From positions 1 to 5,847 of the IMG/VR virus record IMGVR_UViG_3300045988_004982: 5,847 bases of DNA; one strand, written 5' to 3'. The stretch comes from a virus. Below are positions 1 through 5,847 of the stretch, piece after piece. The notes under the pieces were generated by a model. That model saw only the letters and a list, made by a program, of their open reading frames with translations, did not search any database and was not told where the DNA came from. A program made the translations under genes and the position numbers. Every line of letters begins with the position of its first letter. The stretch's first letter is position 1.

Positions 1-55
1 AAAAAGCCAAAGAAGCAGTAGAAAAGACTGGTAAAGCAGCCAAAGAAGGTGCTGA
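1..55. repeat. Terminal direct overlap, copy 1, identical to 5793..5847 (circular-contig redundancy)
   Basis: The 55-nt string aaaaagccaaagaagcagtagaaaagactggtaaagcagccaaagaaggtgctga occurs at both window ends. Confidence 0.97.
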
Positions 56-146
56 AAAAATAACCGAAGATATTATCAACAGGACAGCAAGAAGAAGCAA
101 ACTAATAGATGGATTCAAATCTGGAAAACCATACACAGGAGACTAA
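1..146 (+). CDS. C-terminal part of the DNA pilot / minor capsid protein VP2, continuing from 5066..5792 across the circular junction
   Basis: Codons are in phase with position 3. The reading ...KAKEAVEKTGKAAKEGAEKITEDIINRTARRSKLIDGFKSGKPYTGD ends at TAA 144..146. It is in frame with the ORF that runs off the 3' end of the window once the 55-nt overlap is collapsed. Total length is 873 nt, 290 aa. Confidence 0.85.
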   Translation, partial: KAKEAVEKTGKAAKEGAEKITEDIINRTARRSKLIDGFKSGKPYTGD

Positions 147-152
147 GAAAGG

Positions 153-184
153 AAGGGGGGGATGACAAAACATCCCCCCTTTTT
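153..184 (+). terminator. Rho-independent terminator after VP2
   Basis: A 9-bp GC-rich stem pairs GGGGGGATG (156..164) with CATCCCCCC (171..179) around the 6-nt loop ACAAAA. The stem can extend through G155:T180 and AA153-154:TT181-182. It is followed by a run of 5 T (180..184) and lies 7 nt after the VP2 stop. Confidence 0.8.
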
Positions 185-223
185 GGTAACAATAATCCAA
201 AAAATAGAGAATGTGGAAAACTT

Positions 224-392
224 GAGTTTTCAACACTTTCAACAGGTTTTCAACAACAAGTTGCACAAAGAAATTCGTCATTATGACGAACATTCAACAA
301 TTCAACAAGTTTTCAACAAAACTTTCAACAGTCAAAAAGGCAATAAATAAACGTAGAAACGTTAAAAAAACGAGTTTTCAACACTTTCAACA
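224..392 (+). repeat. Iteron-like array of nine same-orientation TTCAACA heptamers, including an exact 21-nt direct repeat
   Basis: TTCAACA occurs at 229, 238, 249, 293, 301, 312, 324, 377 and 386. The 21-mer gagttttcaacactttcaaca occurs at 224..244 and again at 372..392. Extended forms are GTTTTCAACA (x4) and ACTTTCAACA (x3). Spacing within clusters is 8 to 12 nt. Confidence 0.85.
274..290. promoter_or_regulatory. 17-nt palindrome TTCGTCAT-T-ATGACGAA, a candidate operator or hairpin between iteron clusters
   Basis: The arms 274..281 and 283..290 are exact reverse complements. The element sits between the first cluster (229..255) and the second cluster (293..330). Confidence 0.5.
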
Positions 393-411
393 CTACTACT
401 ACTACTACTAC
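392..411. repeat. Trinucleotide microsatellite (TAC)6
   Basis: Six consecutive TAC units run from 394..411 (equivalently six ACT units from 392..409), directly abutting the last TTCAACA copy. Confidence 0.9.
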
Positions 412-444
412 AACAAGTTAATATATAAAGAAAGCGAGGTGTCA

Positions 445-479
445 ACCGGCACAAGATAGACAAGGAAGCTTGTGCCGGT
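445..479 (+). promoter_or_regulatory. Perfect 11-bp stem-loop ending 7 nt before the rep start codon
   Basis: ACCGGCACAAG (445..455) pairs with CTTGTGCCGGT (469..479). The 13-nt loop ATAGACAAGGAAG carries an SD-like AAGGAAG. No T-tract follows, so it is not a classical terminator. Confidence 0.6.
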
Positions 480-486
480 AACAAAA

Positions 487-1476
487 ATGCCATGTACAAA
501 ACCATTAGTATTTCAGATGGACACGAAAAAGCCACGGCTATGGGGAAGTCTGGAAAACCTATCAAAGCAAGGACTTCAAGCGGACATCATGGACGGAATC
601 AAAAAAGGAAAATTCGCATTGTTACCATGCGGTAAGTGTGAATACTGTCGGAAACAGATGGCTGACCAATGGGCAACCAGAATAGAACTGGAAGCCAAAG
701 AATGGGACGATGTGATTTTTCTAACACTAACTTATGATGATGAGCACATACCTTATGGTGAAATCATCAAAGGTTACAGAAGCATTCAGAGTCAGACAGT
801 AAGCAAGCGAGACGTGCAGCTATTTATAAAGCGGCTACGAAAAGCATACAAAAAGCCAATAAAATACTTTCTAGCAGCTGAATATGGTGACAGAACAAAA
901 AGACCACACTATCACGCAATAGTATTTGGACTGAAACCACCGGATGCACAATGGTATAAAAACCAAAAGGGCAACAGCTATTTCAAAAGCGAGTGGTTAC
1001 AAAAAATCTGGGGCAAAGGCATGATAGACTTTTCACCAGCACAACCGGGGAGCTTTGCGTACGTGGCACAATACGTCAACAAAAAAGCCATAGGTGCAGA
1101 GCAAGCGGCAAAATACTGGATGGAAGGCAGAGAACCAGAGTTCCGAATCATGTCGAAAGGCATCGGCGAAAAGTATCTGAACGAACACAAAGATGAAATC
1201 TTGAAGACAGATAGCATCATATGCGCAGGAGGACGCGAGAAAAGGCCTCCACGCTATTTTGATAAGATACTTGATAAGGATACCAGCCAAGACACTGAAA
1301 GCTATTTTAAGGCACATTCTGACGAGCTGAGAGAGGTTAGAGCCAGACGCAGACGCAGTGCAATACAAAGTTTGGTCAATCTCGAACAGAACACGAGCGT
1401 GGATTACGAAACTTACCTTAACATTCAGAAAGAAAAAGACAAGCTAAAGCAAAAGTGGCGAGAACCGAAAGCATGA
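487..1476 (+). CDS. Replication initiation protein (Microviridae VP4 / phiX174 gpA-like HUH endonuclease)
   Basis: Rolling-circle Rep motifs are present: FLTLTY (motif 1), HYHAIVF (HUH, H codons at 907..909 and 913..915) and YVAQYVNKK (double catalytic Tyr at 1060..1062 and 1072..1074, compare phiX174 gpA YVAKYVNKK). There is also a CGKCEYCR cysteine motif. The start was moved from the track's GTG 472 to ATG 487, giving an MPCTKPL N-terminus typical of the family. Confidence 0.95.
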   Translation: MPCTKPLVFQMDTKKPRLWGSLENLSKQGLQADIMDGIKKGKFALLPCGKCEYCRKQMADQWATRIELEAKEWDDVIFLTLTYDDEHIPYGEIIKGYRSIQSQTVSKRDVQLFIKRLRKAYKKPIKYFLAAEYGDRTKRPHYHAIVFGLKPPDAQWYKNQKGNSYFKSEWLQKIWGKGMIDFSPAQPGSFAYVAQYVNKKAIGAEQAAKYWMEGREPEFRIMSKGIGEKYLNEHKDEILKTDSIICAGGREKRPPRYFDKILDKDTSQDTESYFKAHSDELREVRARRRRSAIQSLVNLEQNTSVDYETYLNIQKEKDKLKQKWREPKA

Positions 1477-1613
1477 CGCGCACAGCGCTAACAATGAATG
1501 GATTAGCCGAGTTCCGCATACGCTCCACACGGCAAGGCGCTAAAGCGCCATTCAAAACAAAGGAGCAAAACCGAGTTACTAATATATCAATTAAAATTTC
1601 AAAAAAAACTTGA
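1473..1613 (+). CDS. Candidate 46-aa basic ORF, start overlapping the rep stop (ATGA)
   Basis: ATG 1473 overlaps the rep TGA 1474..1476. The translation is MTRTALTMNGLAEFRIRSTRQGAKAPFKTKEQNRVTNISIKISKKT. There is no clear SD and no recognisable family, and its 3' end runs into the -35 box of the downstream promoter. It may be noncoding. Confidence 0.2.
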   Translation: MTRTALTMNGLAEFRIRSTRQGAKAPFKTKEQNRVTNISIKISKKT

Positions 1614-1638
1614 CTTTTTTTAAAAAAAATGATAAAAT
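1610..1638 (+). promoter_or_regulatory. Sigma70/SigA-type promoter with extended -10
   Basis: The -35 box is TTGACT (1610..1615), followed by a 17-nt A/T-only spacer. TG at 1630..1631 gives an extended -10, and the -10 box is TAAAAT (1633..1638). It lies 28 nt upstream of the ORF61 start, which has the SD GGAAGG. Confidence 0.7.
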
Positions 1639-1665
1639 ATAATTACAGAAAGGAAGGCGAAAACC

Positions 1666-1851
1666 ATGACGCACGTATATGAAATCCGAAAGCTAGAAAA
1701 AAACGGAAAAGTGACCACCATCCGAATGGTCACAGCAGAACCAAAAGCGGCAAAGAAAGCGTTCAAAGAATACGCAGAAGCAAATCCGGGAATTTACTCT
1801 TTATACCAAGTCCGCAAAGTAGGAGCATGCTTCACAGAAAGAGAGGATTGA
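1666..1851 (+). CDS. Hypothetical 61-aa protein, first gene of the accessory cassette
   Basis: An SD (AAAGGAAGG, 1650..1658) precedes ATG 1666. The stop at 1849..1851 lies 5 nt before the peptidase start. There is no TM segment and I recognise no family. Confidence 0.7.
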   Translation: MTHVYEIRKLEKNGKVTTIRMVTAEPKAAKKAFKEYAEANPGIYSLYQVRKVGACFTERED

Positions 1852-1856
1852 CAAAG

Positions 1857-2249
1857 ATGCTTAAATGCTATATCATGGACACAGACGGAAACATACAACT
1901 TACAAGACACTTCAAAGTAAAAGAATTTGCATGCAAAGACGGCAGTCAAGTAGTATTCATAGACGACCACTTATATACCGTTCTAGACATCCTCAGAAAT
2001 AAACTAGGAAAACCGGTAATCATCACCAGCGGATACAGAACACCAGAATGGAACAAAAAATGCGGTGGGGCAAAATACAGCTATCATATGCGCGGTATGG
2101 CGGCAGATATCCGGGTCAATGGTATAAGCGCAAAAGAGCTTGCCAACAAACTGAATGAAATCGTCCCGGATGAATGCGGCATTATCGTATACAACACTTG
2201 GGTGCACTTTGATGTGCGAACCGGGAAAAAATACAGAAAGGGGGTGTAA
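1857..2249 (+). CDS. Zinc D,D- or L,D-peptidase of the M15 / LAS type (Peptidase_M15A-like), putative peptidoglycan hydrolase
   Basis: The signature reads F-x-x-x-EF-x-C ... SGYRTPEWNKKCGGAKYSYHMRGMAADI ... WVHFD, which matches the SGYR-x4-N-x3-GG-x3-S-x-H-x2-G-x-A-x-D plus H-x-D pattern of the M15A family. Putative Zn ligands are the H codon 2085..2087, D 2106..2108 and H 2205..2207. ATG 1857 (SD GAGAGGA 1841..1847, 9-nt spacing) is preferred over the track's ATG 1827, whose AGGAG is only 1 nt away. Confidence 0.85.
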   Translation: MLKCYIMDTDGNIQLTRHFKVKEFACKDGSQVVFIDDHLYTVLDILRNKLGKPVIITSGYRTPEWNKKCGGAKYSYHMRGMAADIRVNGISAKELANKLNEIVPDECGIIVYNTWVHFDVRTGKKYRKGV

Positions 2250-2314
2250 CAATGGAACGTATCAGAATCAAGTGATAATCAAATGACGCCATAATCTGGA
2301 AAGAAGGATTAACA

Positions 2315-2389
2315 ATGAAATCATGGAATGTACGAGACCAGACCAAAAAAGCAAATTGTAAGCGAAACAGAAAACACATAAAGGAGTAA
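2315..2389 (+). CDS. Candidate 24-aa highly basic peptide
   Basis: The translation is MKSWNVRDQTKKANCKRNRKHIKE, with SD GAAGGA (2303..2308) 6 nt upstream. Its stop TAA immediately follows the SD of the next ORF. It is below the track size cutoff. Confidence 0.35.
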   Translation: MKSWNVRDQTKKANCKRNRKHIKE

Positions 2390-2393
2390 ACTA

Positions 2394-2510
2394 ATGGCAC
2401 ACAGAAGCGGAGCGGGTCAAGGCGACCAGAAACGATTTACCCAGACTGCAAAGCGGGTAAAAAACATCAACGTAAGGCCGAAGGTATCGCGAGGCGGCAT
2501 CCGGCTGTAA
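2394..2510 (+). CDS. 38-aa basic protein, J / VP8-like DNA-binding packaging protein
   Basis: The translation is MAHRSGAGQGDQKRFTQTAKRVKNINVRPKVSRGGIRL, with a perfect SD AAGGAG (2381..2386) 7 nt upstream. Its size, charge and the F-x-x-TA-x-R-x-K-x-IN ... RGGIRL C-terminus match my recollection of gokushovirus small basic ORF8-type proteins. This was not verified by search. Confidence 0.6.
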   Translation: MAHRSGAGQGDQKRFTQTAKRVKNINVRPKVSRGGIRL

Positions 2511-2541
2511 GCGACACAAACCAAAAAAAGGAGGCGAATTA

Positions 2542-2658
2542 ATGGCACTAATCAAGGTCAAGGACGTCAAGGAGGCAATTGCGCTGATGATGAACATCCT
2601 CGAAAAACTTGACGAAATTTACCACGCACTGAAGGATGCAAACAAAGACAAAGAGTAA
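2542..2658 (+). CDS. 38-aa acidic, helix-prone hypothetical protein
   Basis: The translation is MALIKVKDVKEAIALMMNILEKLDEIYHALKDANKDKE, with SD AAGGAGG (2528..2534) 7 nt upstream. Its stop overlaps the SD of the following gene. Confidence 0.5.
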   Translation: MALIKVKDVKEAIALMMNILEKLDEIYHALKDANKDKE

Positions 2659-2670
2659 AGGAGAAAAAAC

Positions 2671-2925
2671 ATGAAAATGACGTTCTATTGTTTCAAAGAC
2701 AGCGTAACCAACGGATACAGCAATCCGTTCTTACAGCTCAACAGAGCACAGGCAATCCGAACGGCACGATGGAAAGCCAACGAAAGCAAGGTAAACGAAA
2801 TCGAAGACATCAGCCTAGTTGAACTGGGCGAATTCGACACCGAAACGGGCGAAATGTACGGCGCAGACCCGAAACAGCTGTGCAGCCTGACAGACCTCAA
2901 GGAGAAATTTGATGTTAAGTCCTGA
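2671..2925 (+). CDS. VP5-like nonstructural protein (gokushovirus ORF5 family, protein C analogue)
   Basis: SD GGAG (2660..2663) lies 7 nt upstream. The N-terminal F-x-D-x-x-x-x-x-Y-x-x-PF, the A-x-R motif and the LVELGEFDTETGEM motif resemble the conserved pattern I recall for gokushovirus VP5. It overlaps the next gene by 14 nt. Confidence 0.6.
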   Translation: MKMTFYCFKDSVTNGYSNPFLQLNRAQAIRTARWKANESKVNEIEDISLVELGEFDTETGEMYGADPKQLCSLTDLKEKFDVKS

Positions 2926-3337
2926 CGTAATGGTGCGCTACTACGGCATGCCAACTGAAAGAGTAGCAAACAATCCGGGCAACAAGACCGCGCCAACATG
3001 GAAAGCGGTTAAGCGGCCAAACGGCACTACCGACTACATCCAGCAGCCGGATGAAGACACATACGAAAAAATCCAGCGAGCCGGCGAGGGCTACGACCTT
3101 GCAAGCGCAATCGCACGGCTGGAAGCGGGAGACGCCAGCATCAAGGCAAAGAGCATGGTATACACCGAAGGAACTGACCTTGAAAATCTGCCGAAGGATA
3201 TCATGACGATGCACGAAAAGGCCGAAGCAGCAGCCGAAACAATGGAACAGCTGAAACAGATGCAGCAGACCGAACAGCCGAAGCCGGCAGAGGAAAAAAA
3301 CAAAGAAGAGGTGAAGGAAAACGAACCGAAACAGTGA
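2912..3337 (+). CDS. Putative internal scaffolding protein (VP3-like), 141 aa
   Basis: SD AAGGAG (2899..2904) lies 7 nt before ATG 2912 (the track used TTG 2909). The gene sits immediately upstream of the capsid gene, has a size typical of VP3 and carries a strongly acidic E/K/Q-rich C-terminal tail. The assignment is positional and compositional, not motif-based. Confidence 0.5.
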   Translation: MLSPDVMVRYYGMPTERVANNPGNKTAPTWKAVKRPNGTTDYIQQPDEDTYEKIQRAGEGYDLASAIARLEAGDASIKAKSMVYTEGTDLENLPKDIMTMHEKAEAAAETMEQLKQMQQTEQPKPAEEKNKEEVKENEPKQ

Positions 3338-3362
3338 AAACCATTTCGCGCAAGTACCGCGG

Positions 3363-5027
3363 ATGGAACGACCGCGAAGCAAATTTGACAGAAGCCACCA
3401 GCTTCTGACAACCATCAACGAAGGTGACCTAGTGCCCATCTACTGTGATGAGGTACTTCCGGGCGATACCGCAAAGGTACATCTTAACGGTCTTATCCGT
3501 ATGAGTACGCCTATCTATCCTGTCATGGATAACTGCTATATGGACACATATTTCTTCTTTGTTCCCTGTCGTCTGCTCTGGGAACACTGGGAAAATATGT
3601 TCGGCGAAAACGATACAAACTACTGGGCAGAAAAAACCGAATACAGCACGCCGACTTGCACAATCGGCGGCACCAGCGGTCTGAGTAATGGCAGCCTCGG
3701 AGACTACTTTGGACTGCCGACCGGAATCAAGAACAAAATCGAAGTCAACGCACTTCCGGCAAGAGCATACGCAATGATTTACAACGAGTGGTTCCGAGAT
3801 GAAAACATCGAAGCACCGTTGATGTTAGGCTATAAAAAAACGGATAACGGCGACGGACACACAAACCCGGACACAATCAAAACCCAGGCAGTAAATGAGC
3901 CAGCACAAACCACATCCACAAACGAAGCGGCACTATACAGCAGGAAGCCAGCCAAGGCAGGAAAATTCCACGACTACTTCACATCCTGTTTGCCAAGTCC
4001 GATGAAATCTGAACCTGTGGAAATCAACCTAACAGGTAATGCACCACTTAAACTGGGAAAAAGCGATGGCACAACGGTTCCAAGCCTGGAAACGGGCAAC
4101 GGTCCGGAAATGGTTTTAAGCGCAACAGGAGGAGCCGCAAATAAAACGGGATCGTTGGCATACGCAGGAAGCCCAAACAATAAAATAATGCAATTCACGG
4201 GAACAATGGGCAACACAATCGGCGCAGGAGGTTATTTGTTCGCAGACCTGAGCGGGGTCAACGCAATCAGCATTCAGGATTTACGCATGAGCATTGCACT
4301 GCAGCACATCTTTGAAGCAGATGCACGAAACGGCACGCGCTATCGCGAGTTCCTTTCCGGCACGTGGGGCGTGACAAGTCCGGACAGCCGTCTGCAGATT
4401 CCTGAATACATCGGCGGACAGCGCATTGCAATCAATGTAAATCAAGTTGTGCAGACGAGCCAGACGGACACGCAAACCGGGCAGGCACTGGGCAATACCG
4501 CAGCATACAGTCTGACCACGTGCAGCAAGCAAATGGTGGACTACGCAGCAACCGAATACGGCTTTATCATCGGTCTGGCGGTGGTACGAGTGGAGCACAG
4601 CTACCAGCAAGGGCTTGCAACCAAGTGGACACGTGGCGGACGGTTCACCTACTACGACCCGCGTCTAGCAGCACTGGGCGAACAGCCAGTGTACAACCGT
4701 GAAATCTATGCACAGGGCACGACAGAAGATAACGAAATCTTCGGCTACCAAGAGGCGTGGGCGGATTACCGCTACAAGCCTTCTTACGTAACCGGCGAAA
4801 TGCGTTCTAACTACCAAACGAGCTTAGACGCATGGCACTATGCGGACGATTATAACGCGCTCCCGCGTCTCTCGGCAGAGTGGATCCAAGAAGGAACACA
4901 GAACATTGACCGAACGATTGCAGTAACAAGCGCAAAAAGCCACCAATTCTTGTGTGACTTCTACTTCACAGAAGATTGGTATCGCGAAATGCCTATCTAC
5001 AGCATCCCGGGCATCGAAAGAATCTAA
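3363..5027 (+). CDS. Major capsid protein VP1 (Microviridae F-protein family), 554 aa
   Basis: The N-terminal FDRSHQLLTTINEGDLVPIYCDEVLPGDT...YFFFVPCRLLWE matches the hallmark FD-x-SH ... G-x-L-x-P ... EVLPGDT ... FFVP-x-RLLW pattern of gokushovirus capsid proteins. The length is typical. ATG 3363 is the first possible start after the in-frame stop at 3312. Confidence 0.97.
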   Translation: MERPRSKFDRSHQLLTTINEGDLVPIYCDEVLPGDTAKVHLNGLIRMSTPIYPVMDNCYMDTYFFFVPCRLLWEHWENMFGENDTNYWAEKTEYSTPTCTIGGTSGLSNGSLGDYFGLPTGIKNKIEVNALPARAYAMIYNEWFRDENIEAPLMLGYKKTDNGDGHTNPDTIKTQAVNEPAQTTSTNEAALYSRKPAKAGKFHDYFTSCLPSPMKSEPVEINLTGNAPLKLGKSDGTTVPSLETGNGPEMVLSATGGAANKTGSLAYAGSPNNKIMQFTGTMGNTIGAGGYLFADLSGVNAISIQDLRMSIALQHIFEADARNGTRYREFLSGTWGVTSPDSRLQIPEYIGGQRIAINVNQVVQTSQTDTQTGQALGNTAAYSLTTCSKQMVDYAATEYGFIIGLAVVRVEHSYQQGLATKWTRGGRFTYYDPRLAALGEQPVYNREIYAQGTTEDNEIFGYQEAWADYRYKPSYVTGEMRSNYQTSLDAWHYADDYNALPRLSAEWIQEGTQNIDRTIAVTSAKSHQFLCDFYFTEDWYREMPIYSIPGIERI

Positions 5028-5037
5028 GAAAGGAGGA

Positions 5038-5063
5038 AGCCCCGCAAAAGCGGGGCTATTTTT
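5038..5063 (+). terminator. Rho-independent terminator or attenuator between VP1 and VP2
   Basis: An 8-bp stem pairs AGCCCCGC (5038..5045) with GCGGGGCT (5050..5057) around the loop AAAA, followed by ATTTTT (5058..5063). It begins 11 nt after the VP1 stop. Confidence 0.75.
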
Positions 5064-5065
5064 GA

Positions 5066-5847
5066 ATGGAGACGTTATTAAGCTTTATGCCATACCTCAT
5101 GCAAGGGCTGAGCATGTTAACAGGCATCATAACGAACAGCAACCAAAGCAGCGCCAAGAACAGCCAAGGGTCAGGCAGCGAGACCACAACCGGCAGCGAG
5201 ACCACAACCGGCAGCGTGACAGGGCCGCAGCAAATCGGAGCAACACAAATTAGCACGCCAACAGGCGTCACAATGTTCGGAAATCAGAGCAGTGTAAACA
5301 CCGCAAACGCACTGCAAATGATGAGCGGACTACTGAGCAACATCGCAAATGCTGGAAGCCAAGCAAGCGCAAAGAAGTACAACAGCGCAGAAGCAGCAGC
5401 AGAACGAGCATTTCAAAAGGAAATGCGCGGAACAGCCTATCAGGATACCGTAAAGGACATGATAGCAGCGGGCATCAATCCTATTCTAGCAGCAACCAAC
5501 GGCGCAACAAGCGCACCATCGGGAGCATCTGCAAGCATTGGAAGCCAACGTTATAACCAGCAGAGCGCACAGGCTGCAAGCGTATCCGCGATGTACGAAT
5601 ACGGCAACAACACGGCAGAGCTGGCAGACAAATACTTACAGCTAGCAAAACAGGCCACCAGCGCAAAACAGCTTAAGAGTGCGAAAAGCTGGGAACAGGC
5701 AGCGAGCGAGCTGGCAACCTCAAGCGCAAAACAGGCGCAACAATACACCTATACAGCTAACAAGTTAGGTGCAGGCCTTGCGGGAGCAGGAAAAAAAGCC
5801 AAAGAAGCAGTAGAAAAGACTGGTAAAGCAGCCAAAGAAGGTGCTGA
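5066..5847 (+). CDS. DNA pilot / minor capsid protein VP2, N-terminal 260 codons (continues at 1..146 after removing the overlap)
   Basis: Frame 2 is open from ATG 5066 to the window end. The N-terminus is hydrophobic (LLSFMPYLMQGLSMLTGII). The block ERAFQKEMRGTAYQDTVKDMIAAGINPILA matches the conserved NTAYQR-x-x-x-DM-x-x-AGLNP-x-LA core I recall for gokushovirus VP2. The central part is rich in A, Q and S. The start could instead be the in-frame ATG 5087. Confidence 0.85.
   Translation, partial: METLLSFMPYLMQGLSMLTGIITNSNQSSAKNSQGSGSETTTGSETTTGSVTGPQQIGATQISTPTGVTMFGNQSSVNTANALQMMSGLLSNIANAGSQASAKKYNSAEAAAERAFQKEMRGTAYQDTVKDMIAAGINPILAATNGATSAPSGASASIGSQRYNQQSAQAASVSAMYEYGNNTAELADKYLQLAKQATSAKQLKSAKSWEQAASELATSSAKQAQQYTYTANKLGAGLAGAGKKAKEAVEKTGKAAKEGA
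5174..5216 (+). repeat. 18-nt tandem repeat (2.4 copies) inside VP2
   Basis: ggcagcgagaccacaacc occurs at 5174..5191 and 5192..5209, then ggcagcg at 5210..5216. It encodes GSETTT-GSETTT-GS. Confidence 0.95.
5793..5847. repeat. Terminal direct overlap, copy 2, identical to 1..55
   Basis: Exact 55-nt match to the window start. Confidence 0.97.

Follow-up and report, generated by a model that had tools for sequence, protein, structure and literature searches.

The DNA analysed here, called the window throughout, is a stretch of 5,847 nucleotides (nt) that spans positions 1 to 5,847 of the IMG/VR virus record IMGVR_UViG_3300045988_004982. The subject of this study is a gene at 1857-2249 that encodes a small cell-wall peptidase of the M15 type, with no recognisable holin to accompany it. 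Window bases 1-55 are identical to bases 5793-5847; the sequence is therefore a complete circular genome with a true length of 5,792 nt. The genome is of the gokushovirus type. The gene set VP4, VP5, VP3, VP1 and VP2 is that of a gokushovirus, in agreement with an earlier note that had called the DNA a microvirus from the sequence alone. Every recognisable gene lies on the + strand, in the order VP4, ORF61, peptidase, ORF38a, ORF38b, VP5, VP3, VP1, VP2. The peptidase is interpreted below as a probable endolysin that would act at virus exit.

Family, conserved residues and fold of the peptidase

The peptidase open reading frame (ORF) runs on the + strand from the ATG at 1857 to the TAA at 2247-2249 and encodes a protein of 130 amino acids (aa), with a mass of 14.9 kDa and an isoelectric point (pI) of 9.3. 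A Shine-Dalgarno sequence, GAGAGGA, is located just upstream of 1857. Initiation at an in-frame upstream ATG at 1827 would yield 140 aa by adding the hydrophilic MLHRKRGLTK; nearly all of the 120 top-ranking database relatives are 130 aa long.

The earlier note had described the product as a canonical M15A/LAS zinc peptidase and had proposed a hidden Markov model (HMM) search and a structure comparison as checks. The description was confirmed by Pfam, PHROG, the conserved residues and the predicted fold. The HMM search matched Peptidase_M15_3 (PF08291) far above the cut-off, with E=2.1e-24 and 86.2 bits against 23.2, over profile positions 2-108 of 108. Peptidase_M15_2 (PF05951) was a weaker second match, and PHROG 894, named 'endolysin', was matched with E=2.2e-44. 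The Pfam domain covers residues 18-119 of 130, and a second domain was not found in the protein. The Kyte-Doolittle (KD) maximum is 0.12 in the first 30 residues (averaged over 11 residues) and 0.71 in the whole protein (averaged over 19), and by hydropathy the N-terminus MLKCYIMDTDGNIQLTRHFK contains neither a signal peptide nor a signal-anchor-release (SAR) segment. The Pfam span and the hydropathy both support the earlier picture of a single domain without signal peptide or wall-binding domain.

The motifs quoted in the earlier note were all verified, namely S58-G-Y-R61, N66, G70-G71, S75-x-H77-x2-G80-x-A82-x-D84 and H117-x-D119. No change is seen at S58, Y60, R61, N66, S75, H77, G80, A82, D84, H117 or D119, either among 27 close relatives or in a separate set of 34 diverse homologues of 38-70% identity. 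R61, H77, D84, H117 and D119 are the putative active-site residues. Sequence and profile searches of the PDB led to 1LBU, a Streptomyces zinc DD-peptidase (E=6.9e-12 with the diverse profile), in which R138, H154 and D161 align with R61 and with H77 and D84 of the H-x6-D zinc-ligand motif; H154 and D161 are what we take to be zinc ligands of 1LBU. The residue-level PDB alignments stop short of H117 and D119, and a search of PDB sequences with the C-terminal fragment, aimed at aligning the H-x-D motif, returned no match. Both residues, one of which would be the third zinc ligand, are invariant in the 34 diverse homologues and lie in a confidently modelled strand.

AlphaFold was used to predict the structure. 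The model from the diverse alignment reached a predicted local distance difference test (pLDDT) score of 97.1, and it replaced a first model from a shallow alignment (at least 80% identity), which had a pLDDT of 75 and weak Foldseek matches. The top PDB match of the pLDDT-97 model in Foldseek was 1LBU, with E=2.3e-4 and a probability of 1.00. Among the top 50 PDB matches, 48 have the LAS fold (the exceptions are ranks 47 and 49), with template modelling (TM) scores of only ~0.4-0.5; these matches include VanXYc/g, VanY, Shh/Ihh/Dhh, Ply500, ChiX, LdcB, LysECD7, LysB4, VanX and the RB49 endolysin. When predicted viral structures were compared, TM-scores of 0.90-0.98 were obtained on phage 'Peptidase M15A' proteins, marmot microvirus peptidases included. 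With respect to the fold, the structure comparison came out as the earlier note had expected, and the model matches the LAS or 'Hedgehog-DD-peptidase' fold.

The median ratio of nonsynonymous to synonymous substitution rates (dN/dS) of the peptidase is 0.225 (377 pairs). The peptidase is therefore under purifying selection. This ratio and the invariant catalytic residues also establish that the ORF is conserved in relatives, a point on which the earlier note had made its reading depend.

Prevalence of the peptidase in microviruses

The earlier note had regarded the gene as atypical and 'rare rather than unprecedented' in microviruses. This claim failed, since the gene is common in GenBank, in IMG/VR and in the literature, and universal in the capsid clade of the window. 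By tblastn, dozens of Microviridae records contain the peptidase; the samples behind them are from humans, pigs, monkeys, lemurs and chickens. In a collection of 5.8 billion proteins, at least 1,510 clusters at 90% identity were matched at E<=1e-5; the best 120 clusters are all at least 80% identical, almost all of 130 aa, and most of them are on contigs of 5.3-6.2 kb. The wider peptidase family comprises 13,449 clusters at 50% identity. IMG/VR holds at least 250 peptidase relatives, and 80 of 250 were examined, 45 of them closed circles.

M15_3 peptidases were reported by Roux et al. 2012 (PMC3394797) in 11 human-associated Microviridae, including 5 Gokushovirinae. Four of the 5 Gokushovirinae peptidases clustered with Faecalibacterium, and the authors made a case for horizontal transfer and suggested that the enzymes serve as endolysins. 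The later literature repeats the endolysin view of these microvirus peptidases, and Kirchberger et al. 2022 (PMC9239249) describe peptidases as a recurrent lysis-type accessory gene of microviruses. The gene and its proposed role have been established in the literature since 2012, and the peptidase is not a new kind of element. What is added here is the family-wide absence of transmembrane ORFs, the universality of the gene in one capsid clade, and the peptidase-less relatives with the same backbone.

Exchange of the peptidase module across gokushoviruses

The peptidase is 75-92% identical at the amino acid level in two groups of genomes, group A, to which the window belongs, and group B. Compared with the window, group A has VP4 identities of 94-99% and VP1 identities of 76-83%, whereas group B has ~37% for VP4 and ~41% for VP1. 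The nucleotide similarity between the two groups is limited to the blocks 228-424, 1476-1564, 1848-2258, 2318-2351, 2541-2663, 4989-5068 and 5369-5491. Because the similarity is confined to discrete blocks, the peptidase belongs to a set of exchanged modules. Module exchange was noted for another genome pair by Kirchberger et al. 2022 (PMC9239249).

A search with VP1 found that all genomes of the capsid clade of the window (62 of 62) carry an M15 peptidase. This includes 28 clade genomes that were first found via VP1, whose peptidase alleles fall at 75-78%, 63-64% and 44-50% identity. In some genomes of the VP1 clade the peptidase is on the opposite side of ORF38a/ORF38b. A gene that is always present and freely replaced bears the mark of a lysis gene.

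A third lineage of gut genomes (MG945157, MG945199, MG945423 and KT264799; L162-L165) is 5.2-5.3 kb long, with VP1 ~47% identical. These genomes have the layout ORF38b-ORF38a, an ORF of 80-94 aa, VP3, VP1 and VP2; the 80-94-aa ORF is in the position of VP5 and is labelled 'similar to VP5' in two records. A profile search in six frames found no peptidase in any of the four genomes, and none of them has a transmembrane ORF. Since the backbone is kept without the peptidase, the peptidase is a discrete insertion into a conserved backbone.

The presence of peptidase-less relatives agrees with a non-lytic accessory role, in which the enzyme would remodel the wall for replication or assembly, serve in superinfection exclusion, or be encoded by a decaying passenger gene. 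We consider such a role very improbable. The gene is under strong purifying selection with invariant catalytic residues, every member of the capsid clade keeps it and shows non-orthologous M15 replacement rather than loss, and a genome of 5.8 kb would have no room for passengers.

Two further observations concern the surroundings of the insertion. In the third lineage, the space between VP4 and ORF38b holds unannotated small ORFs, such as a Cys-rich one of 58-61 aa and another of 68-75 aa. In the window, group B similarity runs out at ~2258-2271, shortly after an ATG at 2253 that opens only a 7-codon ORF; this is the position at which ORF38b starts in group B. A basic ORF of 24 codons follows at 2315-2389, and its region 2318-2351 is 89-95% conserved in nucleotides. 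Judged by this arrangement, a rearrangement between the peptidase and ORF38b seems to have left a scar in the segment 2250-2393.

Cellular and phage homologues and the proposed host

Among 185,579 species-representative genomes, the closest homologues of the peptidase are only 40-51% identical. They are mostly found in metagenome-assembled genomes and isolates of Clostridia and other Bacillota, including Lachnospiraceae, Oscillospiraceae, Faecalibacterium, Lacrimispora and Dysosmobacter, with a few in Bacteroidota and Proteobacteria. The nearest annotated phage genes are endolysins of Faecalibacterium phages. In the Clostridia prophage loci L088, L093, L094, L109 and L119, the peptidase is flanked by ORFs with 1-5 transmembrane segments, and holin adjacency is a feature of the double-stranded DNA phage and prophage homologues. 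The cellular homologues carry a signal peptide. The sequence also has strong ribosome-binding sites of the AAAGGAGG type, and these sites together with the Clostridia homologues led to the hypothesis of a Clostridia host, which the sequence data suggest.

A host of this kind bears on a different reading, in which the enzyme serves at entry. On or in the virion, or carried in the lysate, it would digest the thick wall of monoderm Clostridia so that the 26-nm capsid and VP2 reach the membrane. This would need no holin, the nearest cellular homologues point to Clostridia hosts, and penetration of such a wall by a tailless T=1 virus would be an unsolved problem. Furthermore, M15A domains also serve as virion-associated lysins, and the structural matches in BFVD include fusions to Gp5-type baseplate hubs and fusions to virion proteins of more than 1,000 aa. 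The window peptidase, however, is free-standing, neither fused to a structural protein nor provided with a recognisable segment for docking to one, and keeps its length in relatives. Outside the microviruses, its closest relatives are annotated as endolysins and lie in lysis cassettes, and the peptidase-less relatives come from the same gut and faecal sources. Gp7 of the Rhodobacter microvirus Ebor, an analogous enzyme, degrades peptidoglycan and is present only in trace amounts in virions (PMC11980548). An entry function is thus regarded as unlikely.

A single physical connection with a bacterial genome was seen, at 9880-10419 of L001, a 29-kb contig (ENA ERZ1742712 NODE_713), where a Firmicute glgB is joined to a microvirus ORF61 homologue that is followed by the peptidase. 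The contig also bears Firmicute GerA and trigger factor genes, and it ends 26 nt past the peptidase (relative P0100). The junction cuts both glgB and the ORF61 homologue in the middle of the gene. The contig was therefore treated as most likely an assembly chimera, and a prophage or integration was rejected.

Search for a membrane partner

A segment was scored as transmembrane when its KD value reached at least 1.6 over 17-19 residues. The window was read as a circle, and all + strand ORFs of at least 25 aa in all three frames, overprinted ones included, were screened; none reaches 1.6 over 19 residues (KD19). The highest + strand KD19 value is 1.42, at the N-terminus of VP2. The earlier statement that no + strand ORF other than the VP2 N-terminus has a transmembrane segment stands in this screen, VP2 itself being at 1.42, and so does the statement that no holin is visible, both in the window and across complete relatives. 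A holin-endolysin cassette, a signal or SAR endolysin and an amurin-type membrane protein were looked for in the window, and none was recognised. A soluble amurin-like inhibitor could still be encoded there.

The - strand was considered as well. Its longest hydrophobic ORF (174 aa, 2915-3439) was rejected as an antisense holin, as it was matched by 275 of 2,000 synonymous-codon shuffles (14%). The many hydrophobic antisense ORFs are due to the A-rich + strand.

Of the viral proteins, VP2 alone has an N-terminus of moderate hydrophobicity (LLSFMPYLMQGLSMLTGIIT); in group B, the VP2 N-termini are glycine-zipper-like. A role of VP2 as the source of a membrane lesion is speculative. In the literature searched, no paper was found that explains how a holin-less microvirus peptidase crosses the membrane.

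With no export device across the 61 complete genomes screened, the enzyme may also be pictured as lysing the cell from inside. The cytoplasmic peptidase would hydrolyse the stems of UDP-MurNAc-pentapeptide or of inner-leaflet lipid I/II and starve wall synthesis. The outcome would resemble that of the amurins E, A2 and LysM but would be catalytic, and a holin would not be needed. Small single-stranded DNA (ssDNA) and RNA phages classically lyse their hosts through a blocked precursor supply. The structural neighbours of the peptidase include VanX, VanXY and VanY, enzymes that act on D-Ala-D-Ala or pentapeptide precursors, some of them in the cytoplasm. On the other hand, the closest homologues (40-50% identity) either belong to holin-endolysin cassettes or carry signal peptides as secreted enzymes of the wall, which argues that mature peptidoglycan is the substrate of the family. 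The alignment also shows no residue pattern that separates the microvirus clade from those homologues. Hydrolysis of precursors is accordingly judged quite improbable, and a low probability is likewise given to a catalytic 'amurin' on the cytoplasmic side in general, including the variant in which VP2 doubles as the membrane-permeabilising partner.

Neighbouring genes and other features of the genome

The remaining viral genes are all on the + strand. The replication initiator VP4 is at 472-1476 (PF23343, phrog_942), VP5 at 2671-2925 (PF20577), VP3 at 2909-3337 (a weak Chlamy_scaf match) and the capsid protein VP1 at 3363-5027 (Phage_F, E=6e-149). The DNA pilot protein VP2 extends over 5066-5847 and on across the circle junction to ~145 (phrog_18604, E=2e-126, and 'pilot protein' families).

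Upstream of the peptidase, the 61-codon open reading frame ORF61 (1666-1851, +) encodes a small basic protein (pI 9.4) that is not hydrophobic and has no match in Pfam, PHROG or NCBIfam. In 11 of 45 relatives, a homologue of 42-92% identity precedes the peptidase, and the C-terminal half is conserved in L001 and in the peptidase-less KT264799. ORF61 was rejected as a peptidase-specific partner on account of the homologue in KT264799.

Two ORFs of 38 codons, each with a strong Shine-Dalgarno sequence, follow the peptidase on the + strand. ORF38a (2394-2510) encodes a very basic protein (pI 12) that ends in RGGIRL and matches phrog_10695 with E=2.9e-6. It is 87-100% identical across the VP1 clade and is also found in peptidase-less genomes. 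It is a backbone gene rather than a peptidase-specific one, and it probably encodes a small DNA-binding or packaging protein of gokushoviruses. ORF38b (2542-2658) encodes an acidic helical protein with an acidic tail and an invariant core, ILEKLDEIYHAL. Of 68 complete genomes, 51 have ORF38b at a distance of up to ~0.9 kb from the peptidase, and L153 has a diverged version; in group B genomes, ORF38b comes right after the peptidase stop. The 31 GenBank records with ORF38b are all microviruses, and it is almost never annotated. A dedicated lysis partner was considered for ORF38b and rejected, because its maximum KD19 is 1.07 and it is thus not transmembrane, no significant family match was found for it, and it is present in four peptidase-less genomes. 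The relative order of ORF38a, ORF38b and the peptidase varies between lineages.

A promoter-like site of the sigma-70 type, at 1610-1638 (+), precedes ORF61 and the peptidase; it reads TTGACT-17 nt-TAAAAT, has a TG extended -10 and agrees with the consensus at 10 of 12 positions. An ORF61-peptidase transcription unit probably starts from it. Among 39 complete relatives, 18 have the same strict pattern, at a distance of 50-62 nt or 242-310 nt before the peptidase. In the window, 3 promoter-like sites were observed against 5.8 expected from shuffles, so there is no enrichment. For this reason, and because a transcript from it would miss the peptidase start codon that it overlaps, a second site at 1848-1876 was rejected.

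Directly after the VP4 stop, a block at 1476-1564 (+) is 85-95% identical in nucleotides to group B, in which VP4 is ~37% identical in amino acids. The block delimits, on the upstream side, the variable region in which the peptidase lies, and is a possible recombination boundary. As a structured element it was rejected, with a DNA fold that is not significant (z = -1.07) and no Rfam family. An ORF overlapping the block has no family match.

The noncoding spacer at 146-471 contains seven exact + strand copies of TTTCAACA inside 165 nt (228-392), where 0.26 copies are expected and none of 200 shuffles reaches 7. The array is accompanied by larger repeats at 210-244 and 358-392 and by a (TAC)6 run. 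The block 228-424 is 75-86% conserved in nucleotides in group B, despite the amino acid identities of ~37% for VP4 and ~41% for VP1. The iteron-like array may be an origin or a regulatory region.

Two hairpins flank VP2. Between the VP1 stop (5027) and the VP2 ATG (5066) there is a GC-rich hairpin at 5038-5057, AGCCCCGC-AAAA-GCGGGGCT, followed by the T-run ATTTTT, within a block (4989-5068) that is conserved in nucleotides in group B. The sole motif resembling a Shine-Dalgarno sequence, AAAGGAGG at about 5020-5027, is upstream of the hairpin. This hairpin may be an attenuator that sets the VP1:VP2 ratio. Just past the VP2 stop, a strong hairpin at 156-180, GGGGGGGATG-ACAAAA-CATCCCCCC followed by TTTTT, is likely the end of the main transcription unit.

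Proposed role of the peptidase

It is probable, in our judgement, that the peptidase is an egress endolysin of a gut gokushovirus, which relies on a membrane or wall lesion from a basal gokushovirus exit function, possibly with the involvement of VP2. The soluble, single-domain zinc peptidase, made in the cytoplasm, would cut peptide stems or cross-links of the peptidoglycan and act as an endolysin at the end of infection. The gene would have been captured from the lysis-gene pool of Clostridia hosts of the Oscillospiraceae/Lachnospiraceae type and their tailed phages, and the module of ~0.4 kb moves between divergent gokushovirus lineages, inserted between VP4 and the ORF38b/ORF38a block. Alleles that are swapped, a gene order that changes and a presence that is universal amount to the behaviour of lysis cassettes. 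The proposal is also favoured by the homologues of FP_oengus and of the Clostridia prophage loci, which lie near a holin or transmembrane ORFs, and Ebor Gp7 (PMC11980548) provides an experimental precedent. Because a holin, a signal sequence and a SAR domain are all absent from the genome, the enzyme would need a lesion or wall-weakening from elsewhere to get to the wall. The most plausible source would be a basal egress function of gokushoviruses, which the peptidase-less relatives must also have, and the VP2 pilot protein with its hydrophobic N-terminus would be one candidate for the lesion.

Several points weigh against this proposal. In the canonical scheme of phage lysis, an endolysin made in the cytoplasm does not get to the wall unaided. 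The + strand ORFs of at least 20 aa in 38 + 22 complete relatives contain no segment of transmembrane grade, with the exception of a single ORF each in L031 (non-conserved) and L150 and of three peptides resembling ORF38b, which are borderline (1.6) and charge-interrupted. The screen itself applies a KD threshold and is not a trained predictor. The M15 family includes DD-carboxypeptidases, LD-endopeptidases (MepK) and L-Ala-D-Glu peptidases, and the bond that is cleaved is not readable from the sequence; the peptidase has a weak NCBIfam match to MepK. Finally, four gut gokushoviruses with this small-gene backbone lack the peptidase, which means that gokushovirus egress does not in general need the enzyme.

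In the mammalian gut, gokushoviruses rank among the most abundant phages; to our knowledge, their lysis mechanism has never been defined. All members of at least one large gut clade have a peptidase of this family, and no export partner is recognisable in more than 60 genomes. The holin-less arrangement is the residual interest of this system, and the family-wide data sharpen the puzzle but do not solve it. An enzyme of 14.9 kDa in a genome of 5.8 kb offers a clean small system for the study of endolysin action without a holin, and the Clostridia affinity of the peptidase provides a working host hypothesis for an uncultured clade. If a catalytic amurin, or VP2 as permeabilising partner, were true, it would be a lysis strategy undescribed for any phage.

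Comparison with known systems

Lysis by a very small phage genome is the problem that phiX174 E and other amurins also solve. The E protein inhibits MraY; it is a membrane protein encoded by an overprinted gene, whereas the candidate in the window is a soluble enzyme with its own gene, in a genome without a transmembrane ORF in the + frames.

Among solved structures, the best match by both sequence profile and fold is 1LBU, the zinc D-Ala-D-Ala carboxypeptidase of Streptomyces albus, a MEROPS M15A type enzyme. It differs in being secreted, in its length of 213 aa and in its N-terminal peptidoglycan-binding domain; at 22% identity and a TM-score of ~0.5, the specificity is not transferable.

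The only experimentally tested peptidoglycan hydrolase of a microvirus met in the literature searched is Ebor Gp7 (PMC11980548). Like the window peptidase, Gp7 (146 aa) is a small accessory protein of a microvirus, and it was shown to degrade peptidoglycan (PMC11980548). Ebor differs in belonging to the 'Tainavirinae', in its diderm host, and in its predicted membrane protein Gp1 of 45 aa, which the window genome lacks (PMC11980548).

The Faecalibacterium tailed phages FP_oengus, FP_Toutatis, Lelie and Aster have endolysins that are ~41-45% identical over the full length and share the single-domain architecture of ~135 aa. In FP_oengus, the one record inspected, the endolysin is 138 aa long and an annotated holin is two genes downstream, whereas the microvirus is without a holin.

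The Gokushovirinae and Alpavirinae peptidases of Roux et al. share PF08291 with the window peptidase, as well as the proposed horizontal acquisition, Faecalibacterium/Clostridiales affinity and endolysin role, and nothing essential differs. The nearest known genomes are the human gut gokushovirus KX513876 and Gokushovirinae sp. MT121961, with 87% nucleotide identity over 91-93% of the window, one of them with an annotated 'peptidase M15'. The window shares its gene set with these two and with the MG945xxx series of pig-faeces Microviridae. The peptidases of all these genomes are 72-88% identical in amino acids and annotated 'peptidase M15' or 'similar to peptidase', and the genomes differ from the window only as strain- or species-level variants. 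The peptidase allele of KX513876 (72%) is more divergent than the rest of its genome, which is consistent with module exchange.

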